Source of the DNA: an uncultured archaeon
GTDB taxonomy: Archaea; Iainarchaeota; Iainarchaeia; Iainarchaeales; VGJJ01
Reading direction: 5' to 3'
Length of the DNA stretch: 64,000 nt
Assembly (NCBI GenBank): GCA_964358055.1
Contig: CAYHNT010000001.1
Coordinates: 3,308-67,307, forward strand
A program made the translations under genes and the position numbers. Positions 6,496 through 31,704 of the stretch are shown here, piece after piece. Within the stretch, counting starts at the first letter, position 1, and every line of letters starts with the position of its first letter. The notes under the pieces are model-generated. The model was given only the letters and a program-made list of their open reading frames with translations, was not told where the DNA came from and did not search any database.

Positions 6496-7193
6496 CTTTC
6501 CATTCCTTTCATTACTTCATTTATTTTATCTATGGGTTTTTGTGTGACAATGAGTGGTATTTTTTCGTTCTCTGCGATTCGTTTCGCAATCGGATCTACT
6601 TTTTGGCAGCCGTGCAATACGACAACCGATGGTCGCATGTCGGTGGCGAATCTTCCTACTTTCACTGCAATCATGGGGCTTCTTCCATTTTCTACTTGGG
6701 TGAAAATAAGCGCACGCTCGGGTGTTTTTCCATACATTTGTAAATACTCATGCACGGGCGTGTCCAAAATAACTTTCAAGGAGTCAATGACCGTGTACCC
6801 GTACAAGTTGATTTCTTTCAATCGTAAAGGGTTTGCAATGCATTCGCCTTCAATTTTCTCCATGAACTCTCTCCCGCTAATTCCGCTGGTGAATTCGTGA
6901 ATGTCAAATACTTTTTCTTTGACTCCCTCTTCGCGTGATAATTGGTGCGTGACTTTGGCTCCTCTTCCTTTATCGATTTCAATAAGCGCTTCAACCAAAC
7001 GATTGATGACGGCAATTCCGGGGCTTTTACGTCTTCCCCCTTCGTAGTCGGAAATGGTCGAGGAAGAGACGTGCAAAAACTCGGCTAATTCGGTCTGGGA
7101 GATGCCAAATATTTCTCTCCACTTCTTCATCGACCCACCGGGGTCTTTGGATAGGGTTATTTCGCCGGCTATCGTAACTTTCAATTGGTCCAT
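6492..7193 (-). CDS. XRE-family HTH transcriptional regulator with a C-terminal domain of unknown function
   Basis: 233 aa. ISQTELAEFLHVSSSTISDYEGG is a classic HTH_XRE. A TATA-like TATTTAAAT at 7216-7224 lies about 25 bp upstream. Confidence 0.65.
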   Translation of the reverse strand: MDQLKVTIAGEITLSKDPGGSMKKWREIFGISQTELAEFLHVSSSTISDYEGGRRKSPGIAVINRLVEALIEIDKGRGAKVTHQLSREEGVKEKVFDIHEFTSGISGREFMEKIEGECIANPLRLKEINLYGYTVIDSLKVILDTPVHEYLQMYGKTPERALIFTQVENGRSPMIAVKVGRFATDMRPSVVVLHGCQKVDPIAKRIAENEKIPLIVTQKPIDKINEVMKGMES

Positions 7194-7328
7194 GCTCGGA
7201 ACATCGGTAAACGTCTATTTAAATCTACGTCAAAAAGCGTGGAGGGGTTACGTCAATGAGGTGCGGACTATCAGCATAGTTGGCGGAACACCGACGATTA
7301 GGTTTTTAGGGTAGTGGTAGTGGGTAAG

Positions 7329-7376
7329 TCCAAAGGGAAAAGTGTACCTTGAGGTGCACGCCAAAAAAGCCCTTTG
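7329..7376. other. Nested perfect hairpin (outer 8-bp stem CCAAAGGG/CCCTTTGG; inner 7-bp stem with TTGA loop)
   Basis: Read directly from the sequence. Lies in the intergenic region between 7193 and 7428. Confidence 0.4.
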
Positions 7377-7427
7377 GGTCCACATCTTATTTCCACAGTC
7401 GTTTGGCTGTTTTAATTCGTTTTTCAA

Positions 7428-7823
7428 TCAGTTCGTAGACGGGTATAATTTTGCAAATGTTTTCCCATCGGGTGTTCTACACTGTTCAGGATAGGATTCC
7501 ATGATGGGATATCCTGCGGCAGCGCAATCCTCGAATGAATCAATGTCATTGACTCCTGGAATAATCTGTGTTACCGTTTGCCCATTCGGCCACACGCACT
7601 TGGCGGGGTACGTTTTGAGAATGGGGTTTCCTGCAGCCGCACAGTCTTCATAAGGGGTGTTATACGTCGTCGTTACACTCGTTGGAACGATGAGGAGTAC
7701 GGCGAACACCACAATCAGGACGAGCGCTAGGAGAAACGTCCCTGCTATTTTGAGGAACGTGATTTCCACGGGTTCCTCGTGAACAACTGGATTTCTATTT
7801 TTGATGTTGGTCTTGATGGCCAT
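7428..7823 (-). CDS. Small membrane-anchored secreted protein with an internal tandem repeat
   Basis: 131 aa. N-terminal TM (FLLALVLIVVFAVLLIV). Two ~35-aa repeats each containing EDCAAAG(N/Y)PI. Confidence 0.45.
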   Translation of the reverse strand: MAIKTNIKNRNPVVHEEPVEITFLKIAGTFLLALVLIVVFAVLLIVPTSVTTTYNTPYEDCAAAGNPILKTYPAKCVWPNGQTVTQIIPGVNDIDSFEDCAAAGYPIMESYPEQCRTPDGKTFAKLYPSTN

Positions 7824-7852
7824 ACGTACGTGCCTGTTTTTTTCTTTTTAAT

Positions 7853-8317
7853 GTGCATGGTTTACAAAGGAATTTCTCGGGCAAGCTTATTAGGGGAAAA
7901 AGCCGTTCTCGTGTGATGTCAGCCAAAGAAAAAATGCCTCATTCAGATGAGGAGTGGAAAAAGAAACTTTCTCCTGAACAATACCGTGTGTTGCGTAAGA
8001 AATCCACGGAGATTCCATTCACTGGAAAATACGTTCACACGAAAGATAAGGGAATGTATGCCTGTGCGGCGTGCGGGAATGAATTGTTTGATTCCAGTGC
8101 GAAGTTTGATAGTGGAACAGGATGGCCAAGTTTTGACGAGCCTTCAAATTTGAAAAACATTGAATTGCACGAAGACAAAAGCCTCTTTACGACGCGCATT
8201 GAAGTGACGTGCAAAAAATGCGGTTCGCACTTAGGACATGTGTTTGATGATGGTCCTACGAAAACGGGTAAACGTTTTTGCATTAATAGTTGTGCGCTAG
8301 AATTGATGAAGAAATAG
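7853..8317 (+). CDS. msrB: Peptide-methionine (R)-S-oxide reductase MsrB
   Basis: CAACGNELF...GWPSF...GHVFDDGP...RFCINS are SelR/MsrB motifs. The true start may be an internal Met (7916 or 7934). Confidence 0.85.
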   Translation: MHGLQRNFSGKLIRGKSRSRVMSAKEKMPHSDEEWKKKLSPEQYRVLRKKSTEIPFTGKYVHTKDKGMYACAACGNELFDSSAKFDSGTGWPSFDEPSNLKNIELHEDKSLFTTRIEVTCKKCGSHLGHVFDDGPTKTGKRFCINSCALELMKK

Positions 8318-9329
8318 TTTTTTTGTTTGCAGGATTCCATTCGTCGAAATCTACGTATTTTTGTCTGATTTTGGCTCGATGTCTTTCATTGGATGACCCT
8401 ACTTTTTCGAAGAACTTCCGGACTTCTACTTTGGATGTCACATGTAAATGCTTGCCGTTTCCTAAAACTTTGGATTCAATCCCTAATTCAGTTAGGATTT
8501 GGTTGAGTTGAGTTAGGATGGGGACGTTTATCATTGTAATATCGACTCGCATATAATGTTCTTTGTAGATTTGCCTTTTGTCGAAAAAGACACACCCATC
8601 CGTGTCGAAAACGCCCCTTACAAACGCCGCTTTATTTTCCAGTTTTCCTTTCATTATTTCTTGAGGGACAAGTACCTTGTTCCATTTTTCTCCAGCAGGC
8701 ATTTGAAAACGTTCGGTAATCATTTTATGTAATAGTTTAGAATGAAACGTTACCCACATAGAGTTCTTTTTTCTTCGAATTGTTTGGTGTTTCATGTTAA
8801 AAAACTTTTTAGTGATTGGGATGATTTTTTCTTGATAATAATTCCAGTCAAATCGACTGTCACCTGCAAAACTAGTAAAATGATGTCCATCATAACAATT
8901 TGTGCACCCGTCTCCGGCGAATGCTCCTAAAAATTCACAGATTTCGGAAGTAAGTGGCAAGTTAACATCAAATTGTGATTCAATCTTTTCTTTTGCTCTT
9001 CTGTTAGCAATTGTTCGAGCTTTTAAAATATTATTTGGGTGGCGATAATGTGTGGCGTCTCCACCTTTTCTTGCGCCCCAATTTGCATCGCGTATTATTT
9101 TAATTGTTTGATATTTTTCTCGGATATGCTGTGGCAAAAATTCAATTAGCATTTTGTATTTACTTTCGGTAAGACTCCTTTTTCCAGTTTGAATATACCA
9201 AAAATTTCCGTGGCTTACTTTCAGAAGATGATATATCCCTTGATAACTCGAAAAACCACCTGAAACTTTGATGTCCTTGAAAAAAGCGATAGAATTTTCG
9301 CGATTCCCGACGAAAATTCGGTTTTCCAT
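8283..9329 (-). CDS. Free-standing LAGLIDADG-family homing endonuclease (two motifs)
   Basis: EICEFLGAFAGDGCT and AAFVRGVFDTDGCVF are the two LAGLIDADG motifs. Start trimmed to Met40 so it does not overlap the tRNA. The coding region is markedly AT-richer than its flanks. Confidence 0.6.
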   Translation of the reverse strand: MENRIFVGNRENSIAFFKDIKVSGGFSSYQGIYHLLKVSHGNFWYIQTGKRSLTESKYKMLIEFLPQHIREKYQTIKIIRDANWGARKGGDATHYRHPNNILKARTIANRRAKEKIESQFDVNLPLTSEICEFLGAFAGDGCTNCYDGHHFTSFAGDSRFDWNYYQEKIIPITKKFFNMKHQTIRRKKNSMWVTFHSKLLHKMITERFQMPAGEKWNKVLVPQEIMKGKLENKAAFVRGVFDTDGCVFFDKRQIYKEHYMRVDITMINVPILTQLNQILTELGIESKVLGNGKHLHVTSKVEVRKFFEKVGSSNERHRAKIRQKYVDFDEWNPANKKTISSSILAHNY

Positions 9330-9334
9330 AAATA

Positions 9335-9406
9335 AGCCCGTAGAGGGAATTGAACCCTCAATCTCCAGTTTACGAAACTGGCGCGATACCATTTCGCTAT
9401 ACGGGC
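9335..9406 (-). tRNA. tRNA-Thr (anticodon CGU)
   Basis: Hand-folded cloverleaf: acceptor GCCCGTA/TACGGGC, D-stem GCGA/TCGC, anticodon stem CCAGT/ACTGG with loop TTCGTAA, T-arm GAGGG-TTCAATT-CCCTC. No encoded CCA. Confidence 0.85.
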
Positions 9407-9500
9407 AGTATAGCCTATTCCAACCCCATTTCGCCATTGGTTCCAATGCGTTGGTACCACTATTTCGGTTCGGGAGTGCTTTAAAACGCTGGGGTTGGCT

Positions 9501-10088
9501 TTAGGGGTTTTTGGGAACCAGATTGATAATGGCTTCAATCGCCTGGATTTCTTTCTCTAAACACTTGATTTGGAGGTCGAGCCTTTCTCGCATATCTCGG
9601 CTTCTTCGGATTTTCACCCATTTGAGGGCAGCGCGTCTGTACCCGCGTGCCTCTTGCTGGTCTCTCTTTGGAATTCGTTCAATCACTTGGCTCAACGTTT
9701 CCCCTAGTTCAGGGGCTTCATTCTGTGCAATCCTACTCTTTCTCGGCTTGGGTTGGAGTGCGCGCAATTGTTCCACGCGCGCGCTCAGCAGATTCACCAA
9801 GTATTCTCGCTGGACTGCTAACTGCTTTTGTCTACGCTGGAGACGTCGGGCGGGAGTAGGATATGCGATTAAGAGGATGTCTTCCGGCACGAGTGGTCTC
9901 AGCCCCATTTTTGTTCGAGTTGCATTAAATGTTTTGAGCCTAGCTCGAAATTGATGGTAAAATAGAATGTAATTTTCAGGTTCGTTTTTTTGGATGGTTT
10001 TCAACCGATTGTACTGGTCCGCCAGTTGGCGAATTTCAGGCCTTTTCTCTGCCATTTTTTCTTTGAGGGCGCGTGAAAGGTGTTCCAA
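9501..10088 (-). CDS. Hypothetical basic coiled-coil protein
   Basis: 195 aa, Arg/Lys/Gln-rich. No recognisable motif. Confidence 0.4.
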   Translation of the reverse strand: MEHLSRALKEKMAEKRPEIRQLADQYNRLKTIQKNEPENYILFYHQFRARLKTFNATRTKMGLRPLVPEDILLIAYPTPARRLQRRQKQLAVQREYLVNLLSARVEQLRALQPKPRKSRIAQNEAPELGETLSQVIERIPKRDQQEARGYRRAALKWVKIRRSRDMRERLDLQIKCLEKEIQAIEAIINLVPKNP

Positions 10089-14055: not shown

Positions 14056-14133
14056 GGGCCCGTAGCTCAGCCTGGACTTCAGAGCACTTCCGTCCTAAGG
14101 AAGGGGTCGTGGGTTCGAATCCCACCGGGCTCG
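14056..14133 (+). tRNA. tRNA-Arg (anticodon CCU), with an unusually long 13-nt D-loop
   Basis: Acceptor GGGCCCG/CGGGCTC, D-stem GCTC/GAGC, anticodon stem CTTCC/GGAAG with loop GTCCTAA, T-arm GTGGG-TTCGAAT-CCCAC. Confidence 0.6.
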
Positions 14134-18824: not shown

Positions 18825-19588
18825 ATTTCAAATTTTTTTTGGTCGGCTTTGCCCTGGTTGTTTTTTCGTTCTCGGCTTGGGCAGATTCCTGTGCGGATCC
18901 TTCTATTTCGATTGTGGTTGGCACGGACCGATGGTCTATTGGAAATACGTTGGATGTGAATCTCACGTTTTCGGCGAACCCCTCTCCTTCCTCTCTTTGT
19001 CATTGTTTAGAGACAGCTGACTGCGGGATGGAGTGGCAGTCGGATCACAATGGTTCGTGGAATAAAATTCCCAAGAATACCAATTCCGCCATTGATTTGA
19101 ATTGTTCTGACGTTGAATGTTGGACTGGTCGGAGTCATCCGACTGAGGATTTAATGCAAACTCGTTCAATTTCATGCATTGATCAAAATACTTTTCACAT
19201 TCGAGGGCATCATAAGTTTACGAATACGAGTAGTGCGGTAGTAACTGTGTACTGTTATCCTTCTCCAGCATGTACGCCTCCTGTGAGTGGAAATTTTACG
19301 GTGAATCAATCCTGCACATTCATCGCCGTTCCTGTCTTAGTGGACGGGAATTATTATATTGGTTCGAGTGGGTATGTAAAGCACAATGATTCGGATGTTA
19401 ATTTCTTTTCGAATGGTGCAAAGTATTTGAATATTCAGGATGGTGGAAGAATTGATTTGAATCATAGCATGATTTTCGCGGGATTGAGTTTTGAGCAAGG
19501 TTTATTGGGTGGGTTTCTTGGTTTGATTGGCATTTCTTTAGCTGGAGCTTATTCTTTTTTTATTCGAAGAAAGGGGGCGTTGGCGTGA
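18821..19588 (+). CDS. Cys-rich secreted protein with a C-terminal TM anchor (operon gene 3)
   Basis: Start at Met9 gives an ATGA overlap with the previous stop. Signal peptide, about 20 Cys, C-terminal GGFLGLIGISLAGAYSFFIRRKG anchor. Confidence 0.5.
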   Translation: MNFKFFLVGFALVVFSFSAWADSCADPSISIVVGTDRWSIGNTLDVNLTFSANPSPSSLCHCLETADCGMEWQSDHNGSWNKIPKNTNSAIDLNCSDVECWTGRSHPTEDLMQTRSISCIDQNTFHIRGHHKFTNTSSAVVTVYCYPSPACTPPVSGNFTVNQSCTFIAVPVLVDGNYYIGSSGYVKHNDSDVNFFSNGAKYLNIQDGGRIDLNHSMIFAGLSFEQGLLGGFLGLIGISLAGAYSFFIRRKGALA

Positions 19589-22350
19589 GGTCGTTTCTTT
19601 TTCTTTTCATTTTTTTGTTTTTTTCTTCTGTGGTTTTTGCTCAGTCATATCCTTTGATTTCGGATGGTTCTTTTGAGGAAAATTGTGCATTATCTAAGTG
19701 TGATTATAATGTTTCTCAAACGATTGGGGACGATTGGATTTTTTCCAAGAATGGTGCGGCGAATGTTCAGGAGTTTACGATTACTCAAGACTTGAATAGT
19801 TCAGATGGTTGGCCTTCTCATGGCAGTTATTATGGAAAGCTGGATGCGAATTCTATTGGTGGTTTTGCTCAGATTCAAAGCACGTTTGTTTTCAATGGTG
19901 GAATTATTTACTATGATGTGAACCATTATGGAGGGGCTCCTTCTTTTCCGAATCCTCCTTTTTCAGGTGCACATTTCCAAATTACCTATACCTATGAAGA
20001 TGGCAGTGGTGAGGTCACATTATTGGACTCTAACACGAATTTGATTGGTCTAGACAGAAATGTGGTATTGCCAAATCATCCTGGGAAGGTTTCTTTCAAA
20101 TTGACGAATCAGTTTCAGCAGCAGCATAATACGATTGTTTTTGACAATTTGCGCTGGCGACGTCTTCCCGTGATTGAAACAGATTCGTATCCTTTTGATT
20201 CGCATGTTTATACGGGTCAAAGCTTTTTTGTTGATATCAATTTTTCTACGGGAGCCTCTTGCCAACTTAAAGATGATAGCACAGGACAATCTTATTCAGC
20301 TACGTACATTGGGAATGGTATTTACCGTTCGAGTGGTTTGTCTTTTTCGAGTACTGGGTCGAGTCTGGTGAAGAATTTTAGTGCGATTTGTAATAGCGAG
20401 ACCAATGATGATTCTTTTTACTTGTTGAAGTTGAATAGGGATGGGTTGATTTCACAAAACGGTGGCTTTGATGTAAATGGAACGCCGTCCACGACTACTA
20501 GCACAAACACAAAGTTTCAGGATTGGAATGTGGGAAGAAGTGGAACAGGCTCGTTTGCCGTGATTATAGATAATTCATCGAGTAAGATTGCAGCAGATGG
20601 TCTTCATTATGGAATAATGACAGCAACGGGAATTGGGAGTGCAACGGATATTACTTCCCAGAGTCTTTTGCAAGGTGGAACCGTATTCTTTGATGTGAAT
20701 CGGATAACCGGACCAACGCTTGGTGATTCAAACTTCCAAGTGATTTATTTCCCATTGTCAGGCGGTTCTACGGTGTTGTTGAACCTTTCTTTCACCATTC
20801 AATCCAGTCAAATCGTTGGGTCTGACAAAAATGTGAGCATCCCTAATCAATTGGGTCATCTCCTTTTTCGTGTTCAAAACGTTGGAGTTGGACAAAACGC
20901 GCAACTGTATTTGGATAATGTACGATATTCAAGTCCAAAATTTTCTGAAAACACATCCTGTAAACAAGTTATTTACAAAGGGGACTCATCACAAAAGATT
21001 GATTTAGTCTTTGTTGGAAGTGGATTTGAAGACCAAAATCAATTTGAATCAACGATACGATTCGTGATAAATGAAGATGGCGACCAGAACGGATTATTTT
21101 CATTTGAACCATTCAAATCAAATATTAACAAATTCAATATATGGATGGTGGATGAATACAAAACATATACACTTCACCATCTGGACGTGTCGCCAATTAT
21201 CGATAAATGGACATTTGGTCCTTTTCCATTGATTGATGCGACGATAGCATGTCCATTTGGAAATGAATTTGCGCTATTATCACTTTATCCGCGATTCCGA
21301 TCTTACGTTGATGCTGACGCTAATTCAGCTTCATATACAGGTAAGCCTGCTCATTTTGCCCATGTCGGGTTGGGTGGCGAAATAGTTGGTGACTTGAATT
21401 ATCCTATTGACGTGGGTATTACTGATCCGTATGATCAAAATTGTCAAGGGAATGGACAATGGCCTGCGTGTGGGATTTCCGCCTATGATCCTAATGATTC
21501 ACAAAGGCTTTTCGCTCACGAATTTGGCCACAGTTTTGGTGGATTATTTGATGAATATAATAATGGAAGTTCCAGTAATGGAAGAGATACTGGGACACTA
21601 GCGAATTGTGATGCAACAAATATTTGTCCTAAATTCTCAGGATATTCAGGGATTGATTGTAATGCAGTATGTGGTTTTACAAACTGGTATCGTCCATATG
21701 CCGAAAACACTTTGATGGGGGATCACAGAAAACAAAAGATCGATTATGAGGAAGTAAGTGAAGACAGACTAACTGCCATTACTAATGGTTATTCAACTGC
21801 AACCATTTATGATCAAACAATTGATATTTTTCACACTTTCATCTTGAATGGGGCAATTGGGGCTGGCAATATGGACCTAAGCTCCGTGAATTTCGTTCCG
21901 GGAGCAGCTCCAGAGATGGTATTACCTACGAACCCACGCTACATGCTAAAAGAATTTTCGAGCACAAATGATGTGCTATATGATTACAACTTCGACATCC
22001 CCTCTGCTATTAATTTTGATCTTTTAAGTGGGGATGATGCAAATGGCAGTTATTCATTAATCGAGGATAGCAATACTCTGATCGATCTAGTAGATGTAAA
22101 CTTTTCTGTTAGAGCACCGTATTTACCCGGAGCAGTGAGAATAATTATTTATGACATAAATGGAACGCAGTTACTAGAAATCAGTACCTTGCCATTCACG
22201 ACTAATTTGTCGACTAGTATCGGATATGGCGGTGGATTTGTTACTTCGGCCAATTATAAAGTTGGATATAGTTTATTGCAACAACCTACAGTCGACCTCA
22301 ACAGTTCGAGTTATAAAGTACAATTGGGGTGGAATGCATATTATGACTAA
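19585..22350 (+). CDS. Secreted zinc metallopeptidase, M64 (IgA-peptidase)-like (operon gene 4)
   Basis: GTG start in a GTGA overlap. Signal peptide MRSFLFLFIFLFFSSVVFA. AHEFGHSFGGLFDEY (HExxH...DEY) at nt 21514-21558. KIDLVFVGSGFED resembles the M64 N-terminal motif. Confidence 0.55.
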   Translation: MRSFLFLFIFLFFSSVVFAQSYPLISDGSFEENCALSKCDYNVSQTIGDDWIFSKNGAANVQEFTITQDLNSSDGWPSHGSYYGKLDANSIGGFAQIQSTFVFNGGIIYYDVNHYGGAPSFPNPPFSGAHFQITYTYEDGSGEVTLLDSNTNLIGLDRNVVLPNHPGKVSFKLTNQFQQQHNTIVFDNLRWRRLPVIETDSYPFDSHVYTGQSFFVDINFSTGASCQLKDDSTGQSYSATYIGNGIYRSSGLSFSSTGSSLVKNFSAICNSETNDDSFYLLKLNRDGLISQNGGFDVNGTPSTTTSTNTKFQDWNVGRSGTGSFAVIIDNSSSKIAADGLHYGIMTATGIGSATDITSQSLLQGGTVFFDVNRITGPTLGDSNFQVIYFPLSGGSTVLLNLSFTIQSSQIVGSDKNVSIPNQLGHLLFRVQNVGVGQNAQLYLDNVRYSSPKFSENTSCKQVIYKGDSSQKIDLVFVGSGFEDQNQFESTIRFVINEDGDQNGLFSFEPFKSNINKFNIWMVDEYKTYTLHHLDVSPIIDKWTFGPFPLIDATIACPFGNEFALLSLYPRFRSYVDADANSASYTGKPAHFAHVGLGGEIVGDLNYPIDVGITDPYDQNCQGNGQWPACGISAYDPNDSQRLFAHEFGHSFGGLFDEYNNGSSSNGRDTGTLANCDATNICPKFSGYSGIDCNAVCGFTNWYRPYAENTLMGDHRKQKIDYEEVSEDRLTAITNGYSTATIYDQTIDIFHTFILNGAIGAGNMDLSSVNFVPGAAPEMVLPTNPRYMLKEFSSTNDVLYDYNFDIPSAINFDLLSGDDANGSYSLIEDSNTLIDLVDVNFSVRAPYLPGAVRIIIYDINGTQLLEISTLPFTTNLSTSIGYGGGFVTSANYKVGYSLLQQPTVDLNSSSYKVQLGWNAYYD

Positions 22351-24399: not shown

Positions 24400-27300
24400 A
24401 TGAAGAAAAACCTGCTTCCGAGTATGAGCGTCTTAGATTCACTCAAGAATGTTTATTTTGAGCTTGAGGACAAATATTACGCTTTTTTGGACAAACTTCA
24501 AACCAAACTCCCCGTGTATTCAGTCGTTGATCCGGTGGATAAAATACTCCCCAGTTTTGGTATTCTCCTTGCCCTTGTGGTAGCAATTTTGGGCTTTGGT
24601 TTGTTCTCCGCGCTGGCAGGAGTGGGCGGGGGATTTGAGACGGTTGTTGAATTCAATGACACGCAAGGAAACCCCTTGGAAGGCGTGCAGGTTTCATTTG
24701 AACGTGATGGAAAATTAATCGAAACACTCTTTACGAAAGAAGATGGTTCTGCAACCACGAGCGTGGGGGCAGGAACTTATTTTATTACGGCCTCCAAAGA
24801 AGGCTATGTCGAATTAGTGGAAGAAGTGGAAATCAATTCCGCATTCACTCGAATTTTTACGCTTTCAAGCGCGACCCCTGAAACCACGCAGCGTGCGTTG
24901 TTGATTCAGGATGCACAGCAAGGAATTGTGGGAATGCTTTCACCGGTGGCCATCTCTCTTGCGTTCTCCTGTCAATCGGGAACGCCTCCTTCGAATCAAA
25001 CCGTGTACAATGGAAATGTTTCATTTTTGCAGCCCGGTGACTGTACCGGATTGAGTGTAACGATTTCAGCCAATGGTTTCCTGACTAAAACACAATCAAT
25101 CTTAGGCGACACTACCATTGTCGTGTTGCAATCCACTGCCGCATTTGAGCCCCCTCCTGAAACGGAACAACCCGATGCGGGAAGTGTAGAAATCATTGCA
25201 GTGGAGACCGGCGGTGCACCCTTGGAACAAGCACAAATAAAATTATACAAAATTCCAAGTGTAGGTTCTAACATTCTTGCAGACCAAGGATTGTCCGACC
25301 CGAATGGATTGTCTACGTTTTCAAACGTTACTCCCGGAAAGCACATCGTGATTGTGTCCAAGGCCGGATATAAACAAACTCAGAGTGCGGAATTCCAAGT
25401 CAATGCGGGGGAGAAAGCCACGTTGAATGTGGAAGTCGCCAAAAGCAGTTCTAAACGAAAAGTGTTTGTGAAAATTTTGAGTAGCGCCAATCAAATTATT
25501 GTTCTAGGCTCGAGTGTTTCATTGTTCGTGCAAACCGCGGGTGGAAAATACATTGAGTACGAGTCCTTCACCAGCGACACGAATGGAATAGTAAGCGCAC
25601 CCCTTGCGGATTTCAATGGGAACACCCAACTTGTCGTAACGCACGGAGATTTTGTCACCAAAATTTTACTCAACACGGGGATTGTTTCGGAAGACGCAGT
25701 GAGTCCCATTCCTATCTTACTCGATCCCTTAGCCGCACCCGGTTCAAACGGTAGCAGTTCGAACGCCGTTGTGGCAGATGTGAAAGTAATAGACGAAGTA
25801 GGATTGAGCGTGGTGAATGCGACTGTTCACTTGTACACGCCGGATGCAAATGGGGTGTTAGTTGGAACGCTTCAAACGAATACCCTTGGAATTGCACGAT
25901 TTACCAATCTTCCCGCCGGCACTTACCAAGCCACTGCCTCTACAAGCGTAGGCGATGGGGCAAGTCCTAAAATACAAGGAGATTTGGGTAAGATTATTGT
26001 ACTCCCTGTAAGCTTGTCTCTCGGAAACGCATTGGTGCAAGTGACAGTGAAAGATGAATTAGGTAAAGTAGTGACGGATGCGAATGTTTTCATTTATTCA
26101 TTTGTTGAAAACACCCTTCAATCTGCAAGTAAAACAAACGCACAAGGGTTGGCACAATTGGGTGTGATAACCGGACAAAAGGTGTATGTAAAAGTCGAGA
26201 AGGCTACCTATCTTCCTTTTTCATCTGTGCCGTTTGACGTGATCAAGGATAACACGCACATTATTCAGCTTGAAGTTAGTCTTACGAGCGCCTCGCAGGG
26301 AGTGGATGTTTCATTAACGAGTATTTACGAGCTCTCTGCGACGCAGGGACCAATTCTCGCACAAGCATTAGTGCCGGGTAACACGTATGCTTTCCATTTT
26401 GCAGTCAAAACGCCCGTGCAACAAACAGGAATGAAAGCAGTGGTGCGCGTGAACAAAGATTCTCCTGCTGCACAAGGCGCAACGGATGTGGGTAGCATTG
26501 TAGGTGGAAGCACGGCCAAAGGTGGCGTGGCGTTTTACACGACGTATAATTCAAATGATGAATTTTCTCCCTTGATTCCTGCAGACTCAGGAGTTCCCTC
26601 GAAAGTGGCATTGAATACGCTTGGAGATGTGAACGGTGCCAGTTCGTTTGAGTATATTGTGAATGTTAAAATTAATCCCGCTGCGCTACCCAACACGGAC
26701 AAGTTGGATGTGAAGTTCCAATCTAAAGGCGGCACGCAAGTTTCGCCCTTGTATTTTGAATCCTTCACCATCGGCGCACCTCTCCCTGGGCAAGGGGATT
26801 TTTCATTTGTCTTTTTCGTTTCCACGCAAGGAGGGACAAAGACTCAGGTGAGCTCGTCTGTTCCTTTGGTGATGTTCGCCCAGCAAGACTATGTGTTAGA
26901 CTACGTGATAACGAATACCTCGGGTAGCAACTTCCCCAGCGCCACCATGCTCCTCACTACGAATACTCCCGCGTCATTCACCGCCGCACCCAATCAGGTC
27001 TCGTTACCCGGATTCAACAATAGTTCTTCCGTGAGCGGGAGCATCACCATCAAGAGCACGCAAGAGTGTAGCAGTTCTCAAACGCAGTGTTCTACTCTCA
27101 CAGCAAACTTGAGTGGGGTAGGAACAGGAAATTCACCCACGAATTATCCCTTGTCCATTTTCACTTCTCCCGAGAAACAACTCGCGATGAATATTACTCC
27201 TTCCTATTTGATTCCGGCTCAAACACAATTAGTGCAAGTAGTAGTAACGGATCAATTGAGTAATCTTGCAGGGACATCTAAAGGAGTACAAGTGGAAGGC

Positions 27301-30300
27301 CAATTGGAAAACTCCTCCGGCGCCCCTCTTGGAAGTTCTATTCTTTTTACGGAATCAACCAATGCATTGTTTTTTGCTTCCATTCCTGCCGCGAGTGAGG
27401 TAAGCCAATTGCGCGTCACGGCATCCGCGGCAGGCTACGTATCAGATGTGGTAGTTCTTCCAGTTTCCAATCAGATTTTGTTGAATTATTCGCAGGACTT
27501 TAGTTGCGTGAGTTTGAATCCAAATCCTTTGTCTTTCAACTTGGGCGCATCCGGCTCGTTGAGCGTGCAAACCATTAGTTGCCCAGAGGACATTGATCTT
27601 TACACCACGGGCTTCTCTGAGAATAGCACTGTGATTCAATTGGCCGTGAAGAATGGTTCGAATACCATCACCTCGAGCAACCCCTTGTCCTTGAATGAGA
27701 GTGAATCCAAAACGTTAAGCGTGCAATCTCCTTCGTATTTTGGACAATACCCTTTGTACGTGTATGCTAAGTACAAGAGTCAGTCTACTTATTCCTTAGT
27801 CAAGAATGTCGATGTGATTGTCAATCCTCTTGCAGGAAGTTCCACGTGTTTAAATTTGTCCAAGTACGCGTTTGACGTGAAAGACGGTAGCGACAATGCA
27901 ACCGTAGTCAACAATTGTAATCCCGGCGTCCACGATGCGTTTTTGCCCCGTGCTGTGGTGAATGTGAATGGGGTATACGGTCATGCCATTCCTCCTGTAC
28001 TCACTCCTGAGATGCAAAACCCTGGTAGTTTGGTTCCCTTTTCATACCGTGTGAGTATGGATTATGATAATTCAACTAATTTGGATGTCAATCACGATGA
28101 TTTTCCTCAGTTTTTCACGGCATCCAATTGGAACCGATATGCTATCACTAATCCTGCTAAGTTTTTTACCCTGAAAAGCGAATTTGCTGGAGTCACTCCT
28201 GTTTTGATTAATGATGATCATTACAATGGTAGCGATTTCATTCTTGAAAGTCCAAACGATCCCCAAACCCCGTGGGCGGCTCCTGCAAGCGTGCGTTCGG
28301 TGTTGTTTGAAACCACCTTTGTCACGAGAAATGAAGTCACGCTCGATGAACTTTGTTTTACCTCCACCAATATCGATGCTATTCTGGTTCGAATTGATGG
28401 GGTGGATGTGCAGACCGCCCACTCTCCCAAATGTGCAATCCCCAATTATCTTTTTTCACCCGGGCCCCATGCGATTCAGATTTTCATGTATGCGGTAGAA
28501 GGTCAGAACTATACGCTGACTGTCAAATACAAAGACGCCCCTGCCACCACCGTTGGAAGCAATACGGGTGGATACGCTCCTCTTTCGGATGGTAAAAACA
28601 AGGGATTCTTTGTGAGTCCCTTGTATGGTATTCTATACAGCAATGACACCAAGAAGAACGGCCCCCTGTTACACGGTCCCTTTTCCAATGGAGTCATTCC
28701 CTCTACCAATAGTGTAACGCCTAAGTACATTGACAATGTAGGCGGGAATATTCAGTCGATTATTCGTAACAAAGCCGGTGGAATGGAGCACTTGAAGCAG
28801 TCCTATCTGCATATTTCCTCCACCAACCCCTCCGTGCGTACCTTCATGCATCACACGGATGCATATGCCCAATACGTTGGGTTCGACGACGCGACGGGAC
28901 AACAAGATATTGTATTTGAGAACTTGGGAATGGAAGGAGAAAAGTACGGTCTTCTTACGTTAACCGATTATTCACTCCCCACCAGTGCGTCGGGTAAAAC
29001 ACTCGATGTTGGGATTCTCTTGGATTCGTCTCCTTCTATTATTTTGAATGAGAATGATGAAACCTCCTCTTCAAGCGGAACCGTGTATCAGGAAGGACTA
29101 TGTAAGACGTTAATTGACATTAAGCGCGGATTGGAGTATTATTCCAACGCCACCATCAACATGCAAGTCGCATTGATGCACGACGTGAGTGATACGTATC
29201 ATGCGTCCTCGAATCAAGCACAAAATCTCCCGTGTTTAGCACAGTTTCCCAACATCACGGAGTTATTCCCTGGGCAATTTCCTGGTTACACGGAAGGCAC
29301 GCATAATTTGGATGAAGCCTGGGCATGGGGTGCACAAAAGTTTGCCTCGCATGCGTTTTGGAAAAACTCGACCAAATTAATGATTGTTGTCACGGACAAT
29401 AAGCCCACGGGATTGGGAAACGGAAAACTCACGACGGATTGGCAAGGGAGTATTGAGGAGTTGCACGTGAATAATGCGGCAACCGAATTAAATAATCGTG
29501 GAATTCGTGGAGTGGTATTGTACAAGTATCCTTTGGAATCTTCTTCGGAAGCAAACCACCCGGCAGGAAGCGATACCAAGCAGGATGCCGTGGAAATGTA
29601 TGAGTTGTTTGCCCAGCAAACGAATGGTTTCACGGAGGCATTAGACTTTTCGGAGCTCATCAACAATAACAACCCCCATTCCTTTGATCAGGCCGAATAC
29701 AATAAGGTGGCCATTCGTTTGTTACAACATGCGTTTCCTACTAAACAGGAAACCATTGTGGTGAAACTGGTCTCGCATCCCTTAGACGCGTGTATTGGGG
29801 AGAATGGGGAAGTGGGTGTTACTGGAAGCTCCGCGTTGCCTAAGGTTTCCTACAATTGGCAATGGGGTTCCACGCAACAAAACATGTGTGATTTCAAAAC
29901 AAACGATCCTACGAACTTCCGTTACTGTGACGCCACCCAATTCATGATTACGCTTACGCAAAAATTGTTTGCATTGGAACAAGCCTATGCACCGGGTGCC
30001 ACCCCTGCACAGCAAGCCCAAATCCCTTCCCTCACAAGTTTTGATGTGTACGTGATGCGCGACGCATTGAATGATGATTTTAGGAATGACTTTGTGGAGT
30101 TCTTTGTGAACAGCAGCTTCACCGACGCTCCTGCGTATTTCAAAAGCGCATTGGGCGGAGCATGGAAAGACTATGTAAACCCCGCATTCAACAAACTTAC
30201 GTTTGAAATTGATGGAAACCCCACTAATTCAATTGTGTCAGCGGGATTGTATCGTGCGCAAATTCAAGTCACGTGGGAAAGTGACGTGGGCACGTTCTTC

Positions 30301-31704
30301 GTGGCGAGTTCTCCTTCCGCACAAATTACAGTTAAGCTGACCAAGCTCGGAGATGCAAGTGGACTTTCAGGTTATTCTGAATTCCTCGAGCTTCCCTTGG
30401 ATGGCCTAATTGGTTTGGATGATTCCTCTCTGACATTCCATCGCAATGGGTACGGTACTGCTTTCACCGGACAAACCTTGGACTTAGTTCCCACTCCCGG
30501 CTTAACGTTACGAACGTATCCCAGTCAGCCCGGGCAAACGGCGTTGAACACGGTCAACGTGCCCGCGCTTCCTGCATTCAAAGAGTTGAACACGCAGAAT
30601 AGGGGTGAATTGGTGAGCTTCAACAAGAGCAGCGGAACGCTTTCCCTGCGTCCAAGTGTCCCCGCTCCCGTGTTAGGAAAATGGTCAAGCAATTCCTCAG
30701 GACAAGGACACCTATATTATGGGATTAGCGAAACTTCTTCTCAAGGCGGACAGAGCTACGTTTCTCATTCAACGGACACTGGAACACCCTTATCTAAATG
30801 GGTTCCCATTGCATCGGATTTAACCCAGAGCACATTCGGTTGCACCACCCCTAATTGTGATATTTGTTTGGATGCCGGAGGAAACGCCTTTGTTTCTTCG
30901 CTCAAGTTTGATTTAAACCCGGGAACAGGTGCATGCGGGTTACGTCCTCCTCTTACAAAAAATACGGCGTTTGGTTTTACGTCAACGGGTAGCGTGAGTA
31001 ATGAGTCGTATTTGAGTACGGTGTTCTATCGTGTCCCTGGAAATGATTATTCCATTATTTTAGGATGTAACGATTCGTCCTCCCAACAAATTGGAGCGAT
31101 TGCCACCCATTCAAGTGTGATTTCGAACGGTGGCGCATCCGTTGCGGGATTGGATTTAGGCTCGTCTTCGTTAGAGGATCAACTTGACAATGCGGTTTCG
31201 TTATACGGCATGCTTAATTTGATGGAAAGCAACTACACCTGTATCAACAACACGGCAGGCACGAGTCGCGTGTATTGGAATGCTCCGCGTTTGCGCGAGG
31301 ACTTGGCGAATGCAAAACCCTCATTTGGTCACATAGGAAATTCGTGTGTGGCAACTGGTAATCCATTAGGTGCAGCCGGAACGTTCACCTTGCTCTCCAA
31401 GAATGGAATCATTTCTCAGTCTCAAACCACGTTGGGGATGTGTCCGTTGTACAACAATAATAATGCCCAGAATGGGTATTATGCAAAACTTGGTGTGCCT
31501 TTTCCGGTTGGCACGCAGATTCGTTTCTTAGGATCAGGTGCCATTACGGATGACCCCTTGAATGGGGTGGTGCAGTATCGTTCGAATGCTACTAATTGTA
31601 CGCAGTTGACTTCATTGAATTGTCCGGGTCCAGGAACTCCGTTTGATTTTTGCTCCGCAAACACGGAAAGGTATTGGTCGGGCACTCCTGCAATTAACCC
31701 GTAA
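24400..31704 (+). CDS. Giant (2434 aa) N-terminally anchored surface protein with CarboxypepD_reg/Ig-like repeats and a vWA (MIDAS) domain
   Basis: N-terminal TM ILLALVVAILGFGLFSALAGV. Repeated G(T/K)Y.I.ASK.GY modules. DSSPS (DxSxS) at about nt 29015-29030 and MIVVTDNKPTG at about nt 29380. No C-terminal anchor. Confidence 0.75.
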   Translation: MKKNLLPSMSVLDSLKNVYFELEDKYYAFLDKLQTKLPVYSVVDPVDKILPSFGILLALVVAILGFGLFSALAGVGGGFETVVEFNDTQGNPLEGVQVSFERDGKLIETLFTKEDGSATTSVGAGTYFITASKEGYVELVEEVEINSAFTRIFTLSSATPETTQRALLIQDAQQGIVGMLSPVAISLAFSCQSGTPPSNQTVYNGNVSFLQPGDCTGLSVTISANGFLTKTQSILGDTTIVVLQSTAAFEPPPETEQPDAGSVEIIAVETGGAPLEQAQIKLYKIPSVGSNILADQGLSDPNGLSTFSNVTPGKHIVIVSKAGYKQTQSAEFQVNAGEKATLNVEVAKSSSKRKVFVKILSSANQIIVLGSSVSLFVQTAGGKYIEYESFTSDTNGIVSAPLADFNGNTQLVVTHGDFVTKILLNTGIVSEDAVSPIPILLDPLAAPGSNGSSSNAVVADVKVIDEVGLSVVNATVHLYTPDANGVLVGTLQTNTLGIARFTNLPAGTYQATASTSVGDGASPKIQGDLGKIIVLPVSLSLGNALVQVTVKDELGKVVTDANVFIYSFVENTLQSASKTNAQGLAQLGVITGQKVYVKVEKATYLPFSSVPFDVIKDNTHIIQLEVSLTSASQGVDVSLTSIYELSATQGPILAQALVPGNTYAFHFAVKTPVQQTGMKAVVRVNKDSPAAQGATDVGSIVGGSTAKGGVAFYTTYNSNDEFSPLIPADSGVPSKVALNTLGDVNGASSFEYIVNVKINPAALPNTDKLDVKFQSKGGTQVSPLYFESFTIGAPLPGQGDFSFVFFVSTQGGTKTQVSSSVPLVMFAQQDYVLDYVITNTSGSNFPSATMLLTTNTPASFTAAPNQVSLPGFNNSSSVSGSITIKSTQECSSSQTQCSTLTANLSGVGTGNSPTNYPLSIFTSPEKQLAMNITPSYLIPAQTQLVQVVVTDQLSNLAGTSKGVQVEGQLENSSGAPLGSSILFTESTNALFFASIPAASEVSQLRVTASAAGYVSDVVVLPVSNQILLNYSQDFSCVSLNPNPLSFNLGASGSLSVQTISCPEDIDLYTTGFSENSTVIQLAVKNGSNTITSSNPLSLNESESKTLSVQSPSYFGQYPLYVYAKYKSQSTYSLVKNVDVIVNPLAGSSTCLNLSKYAFDVKDGSDNATVVNNCNPGVHDAFLPRAVVNVNGVYGHAIPPVLTPEMQNPGSLVPFSYRVSMDYDNSTNLDVNHDDFPQFFTASNWNRYAITNPAKFFTLKSEFAGVTPVLINDDHYNGSDFILESPNDPQTPWAAPASVRSVLFETTFVTRNEVTLDELCFTSTNIDAILVRIDGVDVQTAHSPKCAIPNYLFSPGPHAIQIFMYAVEGQNYTLTVKYKDAPATTVGSNTGGYAPLSDGKNKGFFVSPLYGILYSNDTKKNGPLLHGPFSNGVIPSTNSVTPKYIDNVGGNIQSIIRNKAGGMEHLKQSYLHISSTNPSVRTFMHHTDAYAQYVGFDDATGQQDIVFENLGMEGEKYGLLTLTDYSLPTSASGKTLDVGILLDSSPSIILNENDETSSSSGTVYQEGLCKTLIDIKRGLEYYSNATINMQVALMHDVSDTYHASSNQAQNLPCLAQFPNITELFPGQFPGYTEGTHNLDEAWAWGAQKFASHAFWKNSTKLMIVVTDNKPTGLGNGKLTTDWQGSIEELHVNNAATELNNRGIRGVVLYKYPLESSSEANHPAGSDTKQDAVEMYELFAQQTNGFTEALDFSELINNNNPHSFDQAEYNKVAIRLLQHAFPTKQETIVVKLVSHPLDACIGENGEVGVTGSSALPKVSYNWQWGSTQQNMCDFKTNDPTNFRYCDATQFMITLTQKLFALEQAYAPGATPAQQAQIPSLTSFDVYVMRDALNDDFRNDFVEFFVNSSFTDAPAYFKSALGGAWKDYVNPAFNKLTFEIDGNPTNSIVSAGLYRAQIQVTWESDVGTFFVASSPSAQITVKLTKLGDASGLSGYSEFLELPLDGLIGLDDSSLTFHRNGYGTAFTGQTLDLVPTPGLTLRTYPSQPGQTALNTVNVPALPAFKELNTQNRGELVSFNKSSGTLSLRPSVPAPVLGKWSSNSSGQGHLYYGISETSSQGGQSYVSHSTDTGTPLSKWVPIASDLTQSTFGCTTPNCDICLDAGGNAFVSSLKFDLNPGTGACGLRPPLTKNTAFGFTSTGSVSNESYLSTVFYRVPGNDYSIILGCNDSSSQQIGAIATHSSVISNGGASVAGLDLGSSSLEDQLDNAVSLYGMLNLMESNYTCINNTAGTSRVYWNAPRLREDLANAKPSFGHIGNSCVATGNPLGAAGTFTLLSKNGIISQSQTTLGMCPLYNNNNAQNGYYAKLGVPFPVGTQIRFLGSGAITDDPLNGVVQYRSNATNCTQLTSLNCPGPGTPFDFCSANTERYWSGTPAINP

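Follow-up and report, generated by a model that had tools for sequence, protein, structure and literature searches.

Locus and open reading frame

The window, as we call the whole stretch of 64,000 nucleotides (nt) analysed here, belongs to contig CAYHNT010000001.1 of an uncultured archaeon of the Iainarchaeales (GenBank assembly GCA_964358055.1). Directly behind a complete tRNA-Thr(CGU) gene it carries an open reading frame (ORF) for a protein that joins a predicted helix-turn-helix (HTH) domain to a LAGLIDADG endonuclease, and this gene, together with its relatives in DPANN archaea, is the subject of the present study. The features of the locus are as follows.

9335-9406, minus strand: tRNA-Thr(CGU), complete and with no encoded CCA (ARAGORN; Rfam RF00005, 73.9 bits, model positions 1-71)
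9330-9334, minus strand: spacer tattt, 5 nt, between the tRNA discriminator base and the start codon (direct reading of the sequence)
8283-9329, minus strand: coding sequence of the HTH-LAGLIDADG homing endonuclease, 348 amino acids (aa) plus TAA stop at 8283-8285 (ORF list, MENR start, full-length homologues)
8970-9329, minus strand: accessory N-terminal DNA-binding domain, aa 1 to about 120, with an HTH of the XRE/Cro-C1 type and two long linker helices (predicted)
8355-8957, minus strand: nuclease core of a double-motif, monomeric LAGLIDADG enzyme, about aa 125-325 (Pfam, Foldseek, PDB profile)
8907-8933, minus strand: LAGLIDADG motif 1, FLGAFAGDG, with the putative catalytic residue D140 (sequence)
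8595-8621, minus strand: LAGLIDADG motif 2, VRGVFDTDG, with the putative catalytic residue D244 (sequence)
8283-8317, minus strand: last 11 codons and stop of the ORF, overlapping in antisense the 3' end of msrB at 7853-8317, plus strand (ORF list)

ARAGORN and Rfam agreed on the position of the tRNA gene, the gathering score of Rfam for tRNA being 29, and the abutment of the ORF on tRNA-Thr(CGU), which the original prediction had read from the letters alone, was thereby confirmed. The tRNA is identical to that of the related locus L003 (loci are given by L numbers); it is the gene to which the element is attached and probably the source of the endonuclease gene promoter. The mechanical ORF 8283-9446 on the minus strand does pass through the tRNA, as had been said; the accompanying wording, that this was the only Met-initiated frame, needs correction, as in-frame ATGs lie in and before the tRNA, where they are not conserved as protein. 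The first ATG beyond the tRNA, placed correctly just past its 3' end, is found at 9329-9327 behind the spacer and opens the MENR... start common to all full-length homologues. Since this start is conserved, the real product has 348 aa, and the N-terminal extension shrinks from the 150 aa proposed earlier to about 125 aa. The spacer together with ATGGAAAAC recurs in L002, L003 and a relic in L098.

The tRNA upstream is unbroken, and no exon, intein host or extein surrounds the ORF, which thus lies neither in an intron nor in an intein; its description as a free-standing gene was correct. With the tRNA complete and no downstream exon present in the window, the arrangement of a bulge-helix-bulge intron was not found, and the window segment contains no integrase.

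Architecture of the encoded protein

The two LAGLIDADG motifs named in the prediction were both read in the sequence, and the homologues, which are full-length and 28-69% identical, keep the Asp-Gly pair of each motif throughout. Among 31 sequences the invariant positions are G135, G139, D140 and G141 in motif 1 and R238, G239, D242, D244 and G245 in motif 2. Pfam family PF14528 (LAGLIDADG_3) scored 42.1 bits against a cutoff of 22.5, so that the assignment passes the profile threshold, with the second domain only being matched; the first domain, which has no Pfam match, is supported by the invariant residues of motif 1 and by the predicted fold. NCBIfam gave weak matches only, to the endonuclease parts of intein-containing proteins, and holds no dedicated model for the family.

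An AlphaFold2 model built from 31 homologues reached a mean predicted local distance difference test score (pLDDT) of 93 and displays the pseudo-symmetric two-lobed alpha-beta-beta-alpha-beta-beta-alpha fold of the class. In Foldseek searches the nuclease core matched the TliVMA intein endonuclease (1e-10), I-DmoI (2e-9) and I-Tsp061I (3e-8), each with a probability of 1.00, and a sequence profile search of the PDB returned PI-PfuI (5e-9). These four, the best structural and sequence matches, share the two-lobed fold and an acidic residue in both motifs; they are, however, encoded in rRNA introns or inteins, whereas the gene of the window stands free beside a tRNA and carries an extra XRE-type HTH domain of about 120 aa. 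The nuclease core is an ordinary LAGLIDADG core; what is unusual about the gene is that it stands free, that it fuses an XRE-HTH to this core and that it is dedicated to a single tRNA species. The retention of D140 and D244 would fit an enzyme that is still active.

A family associated with tRNA-Thr genes

A protein search yielded about 40 relatives, of which the named ones are LAGLIDADG endonucleases from metagenome-assembled genomes (MAGs) of Diapherotrites/Iainarchaeum and Nanoarchaeota. By scanning genomes with two peptide patterns, 154 loci were found and 80 kept, nearly all of them in archaeal MAGs and most with DPANN lineage labels; as only two patterns were used, family size and occupancy are lower bounds. 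A scan of viral contigs revealed no relative and thus no evidence for a viral vector.

At these 80 loci and the window, tRNAs were called by ARAGORN with and without its intron mode and by nhmmer with a tRNA-Thr profile. A full-length tRNA-Thr abuts the ORF in about 65 of the 81 loci; with intron-containing tRNAs included, the number is about 75. Because tRNA-Thr genes are few in a genome of about 1 Mb, this frequency lies far above what chance would give: the tie of the family to tRNA-Thr genes is specific. Two copies in one MAG (L008 and L059) each lie beside a different tRNA-Thr. Three protein clades, taken from a quick neighbour-joining tree, coincide with three physical arrangements and with fixed sets of isoacceptors. 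Clade A, with 31 (+2) loci including the window, has tRNA-Thr(CGU) on the same strand just upstream of the ORF. In clade B (19 loci) the 3' end of the ORF runs antisense into tRNA-Thr(GGU or UGU). The conserved part of the clade-C ORFs extends precisely to the first nucleotide of a tRNA-Thr(GGU) on the same strand, their stop codon lying 15-21 nt within the tRNA (15 loci, and about 8 more with intron-containing tRNAs).

Duplicated tRNA-Thr halves

In 14 (+2) of the 31 (+2) clade-A loci, a second, partial tRNA-Thr follows directly at the end of the ORF on the same strand. These fragments extend from tRNA model positions 22-42 to position 73, with E values down to 1e-10, and keep the TTCGTAA anticodon loop, the T-arm and the 3' strand of the acceptor stem. 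The anticodon loop of the fragment supplies the stop codon of the ORF at 10 loci, through its positions 36-38: nine have TAA, and L009 has TAG (at about 37-39). The fragments diverge from the intact tRNA of the same locus, and among the differences are compensatory changes in the acceptor stem and T-stem; the T-stem of the L005 fragment, for example, reads GCGGG/CCCGT, against GAGGG/CCCTC in its intact counterpart. Such differences are expected if the intact tRNA and the fragment come from different functional alleles.

The relation between the two parts becomes apparent from L097, which has no endonuclease gene, and the filled locus L005. Their GlyRS proteins are 90% identical and the 50 nt upstream of the tRNA almost so, and the place beside msrB that the fragment takes in L005 is held by the whole tRNA in L097. 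From this comparison, the intact tRNA and the endonuclease gene look like an insertion that has displaced the native 3' part.

The rest of the window contains neither a second copy of the endonuclease gene nor a tRNA-Thr fragment. The conserved C-terminal tail EWNPA was considered as a decayed T-arm, an idea prompted by the antisense-tRNA-like ends RESNPRP and AGIEPTT of some homologues, and was dropped, since a permissive Rfam scan of 8150-9500 gave no tRNA-like relic and the motif stands upstream of the real fragment in L004 and L005. Likewise, tRNAs with introns of 837-1128 nt, called round the ORF by the intron mode of ARAGORN in L021 and L076, are artefacts of an intact tRNA plus a fragment. 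As a separate observation, in five clade-C loci (L053, L054, L067, L068 and L069) the intact tRNA-Thr(GGU or CGU) is followed after 12-35 nt, with no intervening ORF, by a short 3' fragment resembling tRNA-Thr (model positions 28-43 to 64-73; E 5e-5 to 0.5), which could be the scar of an earlier insertion or a T-arm-like terminator hairpin.

Composition

The ORF has a GC content of 0.364 and a third-position GC content (GC3) of 0.328. The neighbouring genes have a GC content of 0.42-0.50 and most of them a GC3 of 0.43-0.56, while the mean GC content of the 64-kb window is 0.448. In 69 of 73 related loci, too, the endonuclease gene exceeds its flanks in AT content, so that the AT-richness pointed out earlier for the window turns out to be a repeated trait. 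One further ORF of the window, of 921 aa (19585-22350, plus strand; GC 0.392), has the same GC3 of 0.328, far under the other window genes, and may be another acquired gene.

Presence, absence and decay

Loci found with an endonuclease query are biased towards presence, and relatives were therefore sampled through GlyRS, by a protein search and contig look-ups. All seven contigs obtained in this way (L097-L103; GlyRS 54-78% identical to that of the window) have GlyRS followed by tRNA-Thr(CGU) and no endonuclease gene. L097, with the most similar GlyRS among the relatives examined (78%), shows a clean empty site, in which the tRNA is followed after 9 nt by the msrB stop; compared with it, the overlap at 8283-8317 in the window is the right-hand junction of the insertion. 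A metagenome scan with GlyRS returned a single close relative, on the same contig as L003, and distant archaea. One and the same site is thus filled in the window, L001-L004, L009, L011 and others, and empty in L097-L103. The gene order conserved around it in the Iainarchaeum-like relatives is Nop, fibrillarin, GlyRS, tRNA-Thr(CGU), endonuclease gene, sometimes msrB, and a regulator of the HTH_3 type.

Decay is seen as well. L098 retains the relic mentioned above, 'tattt ATGGAAAAC...', with 24 N-terminal codons and then a stop; in L005, L006 and L007 the N-terminal domain has been deleted in frame, so that MENR runs straight into the nuclease core; and the copy in L021 is frameshifted. The histories of GlyRS and of the neighbouring tRNA-Thr(CGU) are discordant, with an overall rho of 0.36 between their identities in comparisons that rest on about 72 nt of tRNA: the pair L097-L005 has 90% GlyRS and 72% tRNA identity, L097-L002 67% and 95%, and L006-L007 62% and 100%. 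The endonuclease itself shows mild incongruence, L005 and L006 being 72% identical with a GlyRS identity of 65%, and L005 and L003 70% with a GlyRS identity of 87%. Taken together, polymorphism, relics, composition and tRNA discordance point to the cycle of gain, decay and loss of a selfish gene with co-conversion of its target, and not to a host factor. The original prediction had seen in the gene the remnant of a mobile element or an endonuclease acting at a tRNA-proximal site; the contiguous tRNA, the polymorphic site, the family-wide tie to tRNA-Thr and the AT-richness all support this, and the check among relatives, with its patchy recurrence, relics, truncations and non-host-like composition, did not refute it.

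Other possible insertions were noted on both sides of this tRNA. Between GlyRS and the tRNA the window has an ORF for a basic, probably coiled-coil protein of 195 aa (9501-10088, minus strand) with no counterpart in syntenic relatives; the slot is empty in L003 and holds unrelated genes for 174-183 aa on the opposite strand in L097 and L101, and thus looks like a second insertion hot spot. In L102, which has no endonuclease gene, an integrase-like gene (weak Phage_integrase match) and a Y1 transposase follow tRNA-Thr(CGU) at 6517-8023, and the 3' side of this tRNA may be used by other mobile elements too.

Expression

The spacer tattt is too short for a promoter and contains no oligo-T terminator, for which reason the gene of the window is most likely transcribed from the promoter of the tRNA, that is, co-transcribed with it. 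Throughout the subclade of the window the distance between tRNA and ORF is 1-6 nt; in the Pace/Woese subclade it is about 70 nt, and a TTTAAATA box is conserved there some 26 nt ahead of the ATG. Processing of the tRNA 3' end would free the endonuclease transcript as a nearly leaderless mRNA, and leaderless mRNAs are translated in archaea. Upstream of the tRNA, a motif GAATAA(A/G)ACGGTTTTCC, probably the tRNA promoter, was found 10-25 nt before the 5' end in L001, L002, L005, L006, L007, L097 and L101. The window and L003 have another upstream sequence (GGAATAGGCTATACT) and an unusual D-arm (GCGAAATGGTATCGC).

Proposed mechanism and alternative explanations

We propose, with a probability of about 0.7, that the window carries an intact, free-standing gene for a homing endonuclease composed of an HTH domain and an I-DmoI-like core, which belongs to a DPANN-wide tRNA-Thr family and homes by cleavage and repair of tRNA-Thr genes. 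The enzyme would cut endonuclease-free tRNA-Thr genes, probably in the region of the D-arm and anticodon stem near nucleotide 30, a target suggested by the fragments, which start at 22-42, by the ties of the clades to particular anticodons and by linked tRNAs with an intron at 30-32. Repair from an endonuclease-bearing allele would copy in a replacement tRNA part along with the endonuclease gene, and the native 3' part would be pushed downstream, as happens to the 3' ends of protein genes with the mobile ORFs of fungal mitochondria. The displaced fragment would then act as a portable right-hand homology arm for later homing; with the tRNA-internal homology that it offers on the far side, the cassette could move between genomes whose flanks are unrelated. 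For the copy in the window, whose fragment would have been lost, further spread would rely on homology on the msrB side with close relatives.

Several points weigh against this proposal. Cleavage and target site are steps that we infer from sequence comparison, and co-transcription with the tRNA is suggested by spacing. No displaced fragment was found in the window, by Rfam (E<=10) or nhmmer, nor in L001-L003, L006, L007 and L012, all of which we interpret as derived copies that have lost it; a clear fragment is present in only one of 19 clade-B loci, and weak 5' tRNA fragments upstream of clade-C genes scored no better than shuffled controls in pairwise tests. Within the Iainarchaeum-like relatives the identity of the endonuclease roughly follows that of GlyRS, so that much of the inheritance there is vertical and individual horizontal homing events are presumptive. 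Finally, the intact adjacent tRNA would also hold the proposed target, and a mechanism of immunity must be assumed; sequence variation or a mini-intron may account for its escape.

The vertical signal bears on the question of whether the protein is a domesticated host factor, recruited for a cellular role connected with tRNA-Thr, for instance in the regulation or protection of the locus, and kept for this function and not by homing. The catalytic residues and the full-length architecture have been kept over deep divergence, the syntenic order GlyRS, tRNA-Thr(CGU), ORF persists even at GlyRS identities of 47-53%, with endonuclease identity tracking that of GlyRS, and the bacterial transcription factor WhiA, to which Foldseek gave matches (8dy9_I, 8dy7_I), shows that a LAGLIDADG scaffold combined with an HTH can be domesticated. 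WhiA, however, has lost the catalytic residues, carries its HTH at the C-terminus and is universal in its lineage, whereas the family described here is patchy and keeps the acidic D140 and D244, residues without counterpart in domesticated LAGLIDADG proteins of the WhiA type. The absence of the gene from all seven GlyRS-sampled relatives, L097 among them, the relics, in-frame truncations and frameshifted copy, the atypical AT-rich composition in 69 of 73 loci and the three physical arrangements relative to the tRNA, one of them convergent, which speak against a shared transcriptional or functional unit, make domestication improbable. That the copy in the window descends from a homing element and is now a stranded passenger, vertically inherited, immobile and heading towards decay, is an unlikely alternative, for which several features speak: it lacks the tRNA fragment that could serve as a homology arm, its ORF takes its last 11 codons and stop from antisense msrB, and every stage of decay is represented among related loci. 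Yet the frame of 348 codons is intact with all family-invariant residues in place, the predicted fold is confident (pLDDT 93), and empty sites of the L097 type share the msrB flank, which would leave homing by flank homology possible.

The duplicated tRNA parts could be read in two further ways. If the ORF lay in a bulge-helix-bulge intron of tRNA-Thr, its free-standing look would be an annotation artefact; the giant-intron calls across the ORF in L021 and L076, the start of the downstream fragments near the anticodon loop and the presence of the archaeal intron enzymes I-DmoI and I-Tsp061I among the closest solved structures would suit this. In the window and most clade-A loci, however, the upstream tRNA is whole and uninterrupted, and the fragments (22-42 to 73) repeat positions of the intact tRNA and differ from it in sequence, which makes them duplicates and not a missing exon. 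For the window, where no downstream exon exists, this explanation is already contradicted, and we give it almost no weight. A direct repeat of the 3' part of a tRNA around inserted DNA is also the classic signature of integration, and the tRNA and its fragment might represent attL and attR of a tyrosine-recombinase element of whose cargo the endonuclease gene has survived; besides the repeat itself, the integrase-like gene and Y1 transposase behind the same tRNA-Thr(CGU) in L102 agree with this. It is nevertheless very improbable, as dozens of independent loci have an endonuclease gene of about 1 kb alone between the repeats and no integrase, the ORF is in frame with the fragment and stops in its anticodon loop, the repeats are non-identical with compensatory changes, and a single protein family occurs in three fixed arrangements.

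Introns in the linked tRNA genes

Introns at position 30-32 occur in several endonuclease-linked tRNA-Thr(CGU) genes of the Woese-like subclade; in the linked tRNA-Thr(CGU) genes of L013, L014, L015, L018, L020, L032 and L044 the intron at this position is non-canonical, 12-17 nt long, and ends in GCTGAA or GCCGAA. The tRNA-Thr(GGU) genes of clade B have introns of 14-30 nt at the canonical 37/38 site. By interrupting the target, a mini-intron at 30-32 would protect the linked tRNA from attack, and the free-standing endonuclease gene and the intron would then be partners in 'collaborative homing', of the kind that Zeng, Bonocora and Shub reportedly proposed in 2009 for cyanophage psbA. On this view, the unusually fast, GlyRS-discordant change of tRNA-Thr(CGU) would reflect an arms race for resistant tRNA variants. 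A speculative extension, which we regard as rather doubtful, is that endonuclease attack around nucleotide 30 contributes to the disruption of tRNA genes in DPANN archaea and to the rapid turnover of their tRNAs; if true, it would provide a concrete agent for the long-standing suggestion that archaeal tRNA genes are shielded from mobile elements by introns and splits.

Relation to known systems

Free-standing LAGLIDADG genes are known, and so are mobile ORFs whose insertion duplicates the target gene's end. Among the latter are the mobile ORFs of fungal mitochondria (Allomyces atp6; Glomus atp6, atp9, cox2 and nad3), free-standing LAGLIDADG or GIY-YIG ORFs in the 3' part of a host gene, which bring a replacement 3' gene end, leave the divergent native end downstream and can be in phase with the host gene (PMC3630166). 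At the level of the family the likeness is close, with an intact tRNA, an endonuclease gene, a displaced tRNA 3' half and a stop codon within the fragment. Of these traits, the displaced partial copy of the target is absent from the window and present in the 14 (+2) clade-A relatives, and sequence differences between inserted and native copy are likewise found in relatives only. Unlike the fungal ORFs, the archaeal genes have a chromosomal tRNA and not a mitochondrial protein gene as host, the fragment of the window has been lost, and clades B and C show other geometries.

Along with these mobile ORFs, the nearest analogues in mechanism are the free-standing endonucleases SegB, SegF and MobE of phage T4, of which SegB lies in the tRNA gene cluster and for which 'intronless homing' is described (PMC13096335, PMC2790892). 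These, too, are endonuclease genes beside tRNA or essential genes, and they spread by double-strand breaks in endonuclease-free genomes with co-conversion of neighbouring markers. They are, however, GIY-YIG or HNH enzymes of phage genomes, none of them is tied to a single tRNA species, and a duplication of half a tRNA is unreported for them. Full-text literature searches gave no description of a DPANN family that is dedicated to one tRNA species and has isoacceptor-specific sub-lineages and displaced half-tRNAs; the family is widespread and apparently undescribed.

If the proposal is true, stray tRNA-Thr fragments in DPANN annotations would be accounted for, as would tRNA calls with a 'giant intron' or of the wrong type, and there would be a testable mechanism for the replacement of tRNA genes and possibly for intron gain. 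The proposal would also describe a gene that hitch-hikes on a tRNA promoter, with the 5' end of its mRNA set by tRNA processing, and it would supply new meganuclease scaffolds that combine an HTH with a monomeric LAGLIDADG core and whose natural targets belong to a highly conserved gene.

Other features of the window

A further tRNA was detected at 14056-14133 on the plus strand by Rfam (54.8 bits) and missed by ARAGORN; its anticodon loop CGTCCTAAG identifies it as tRNA-Arg(CCU). ARAGORN calls a syntenic tRNA-Arg(CCT) in L006, L007, L098, L099 and L103. The window also contains a very long ORF of 2434 aa at 24400-31704 on the plus strand.

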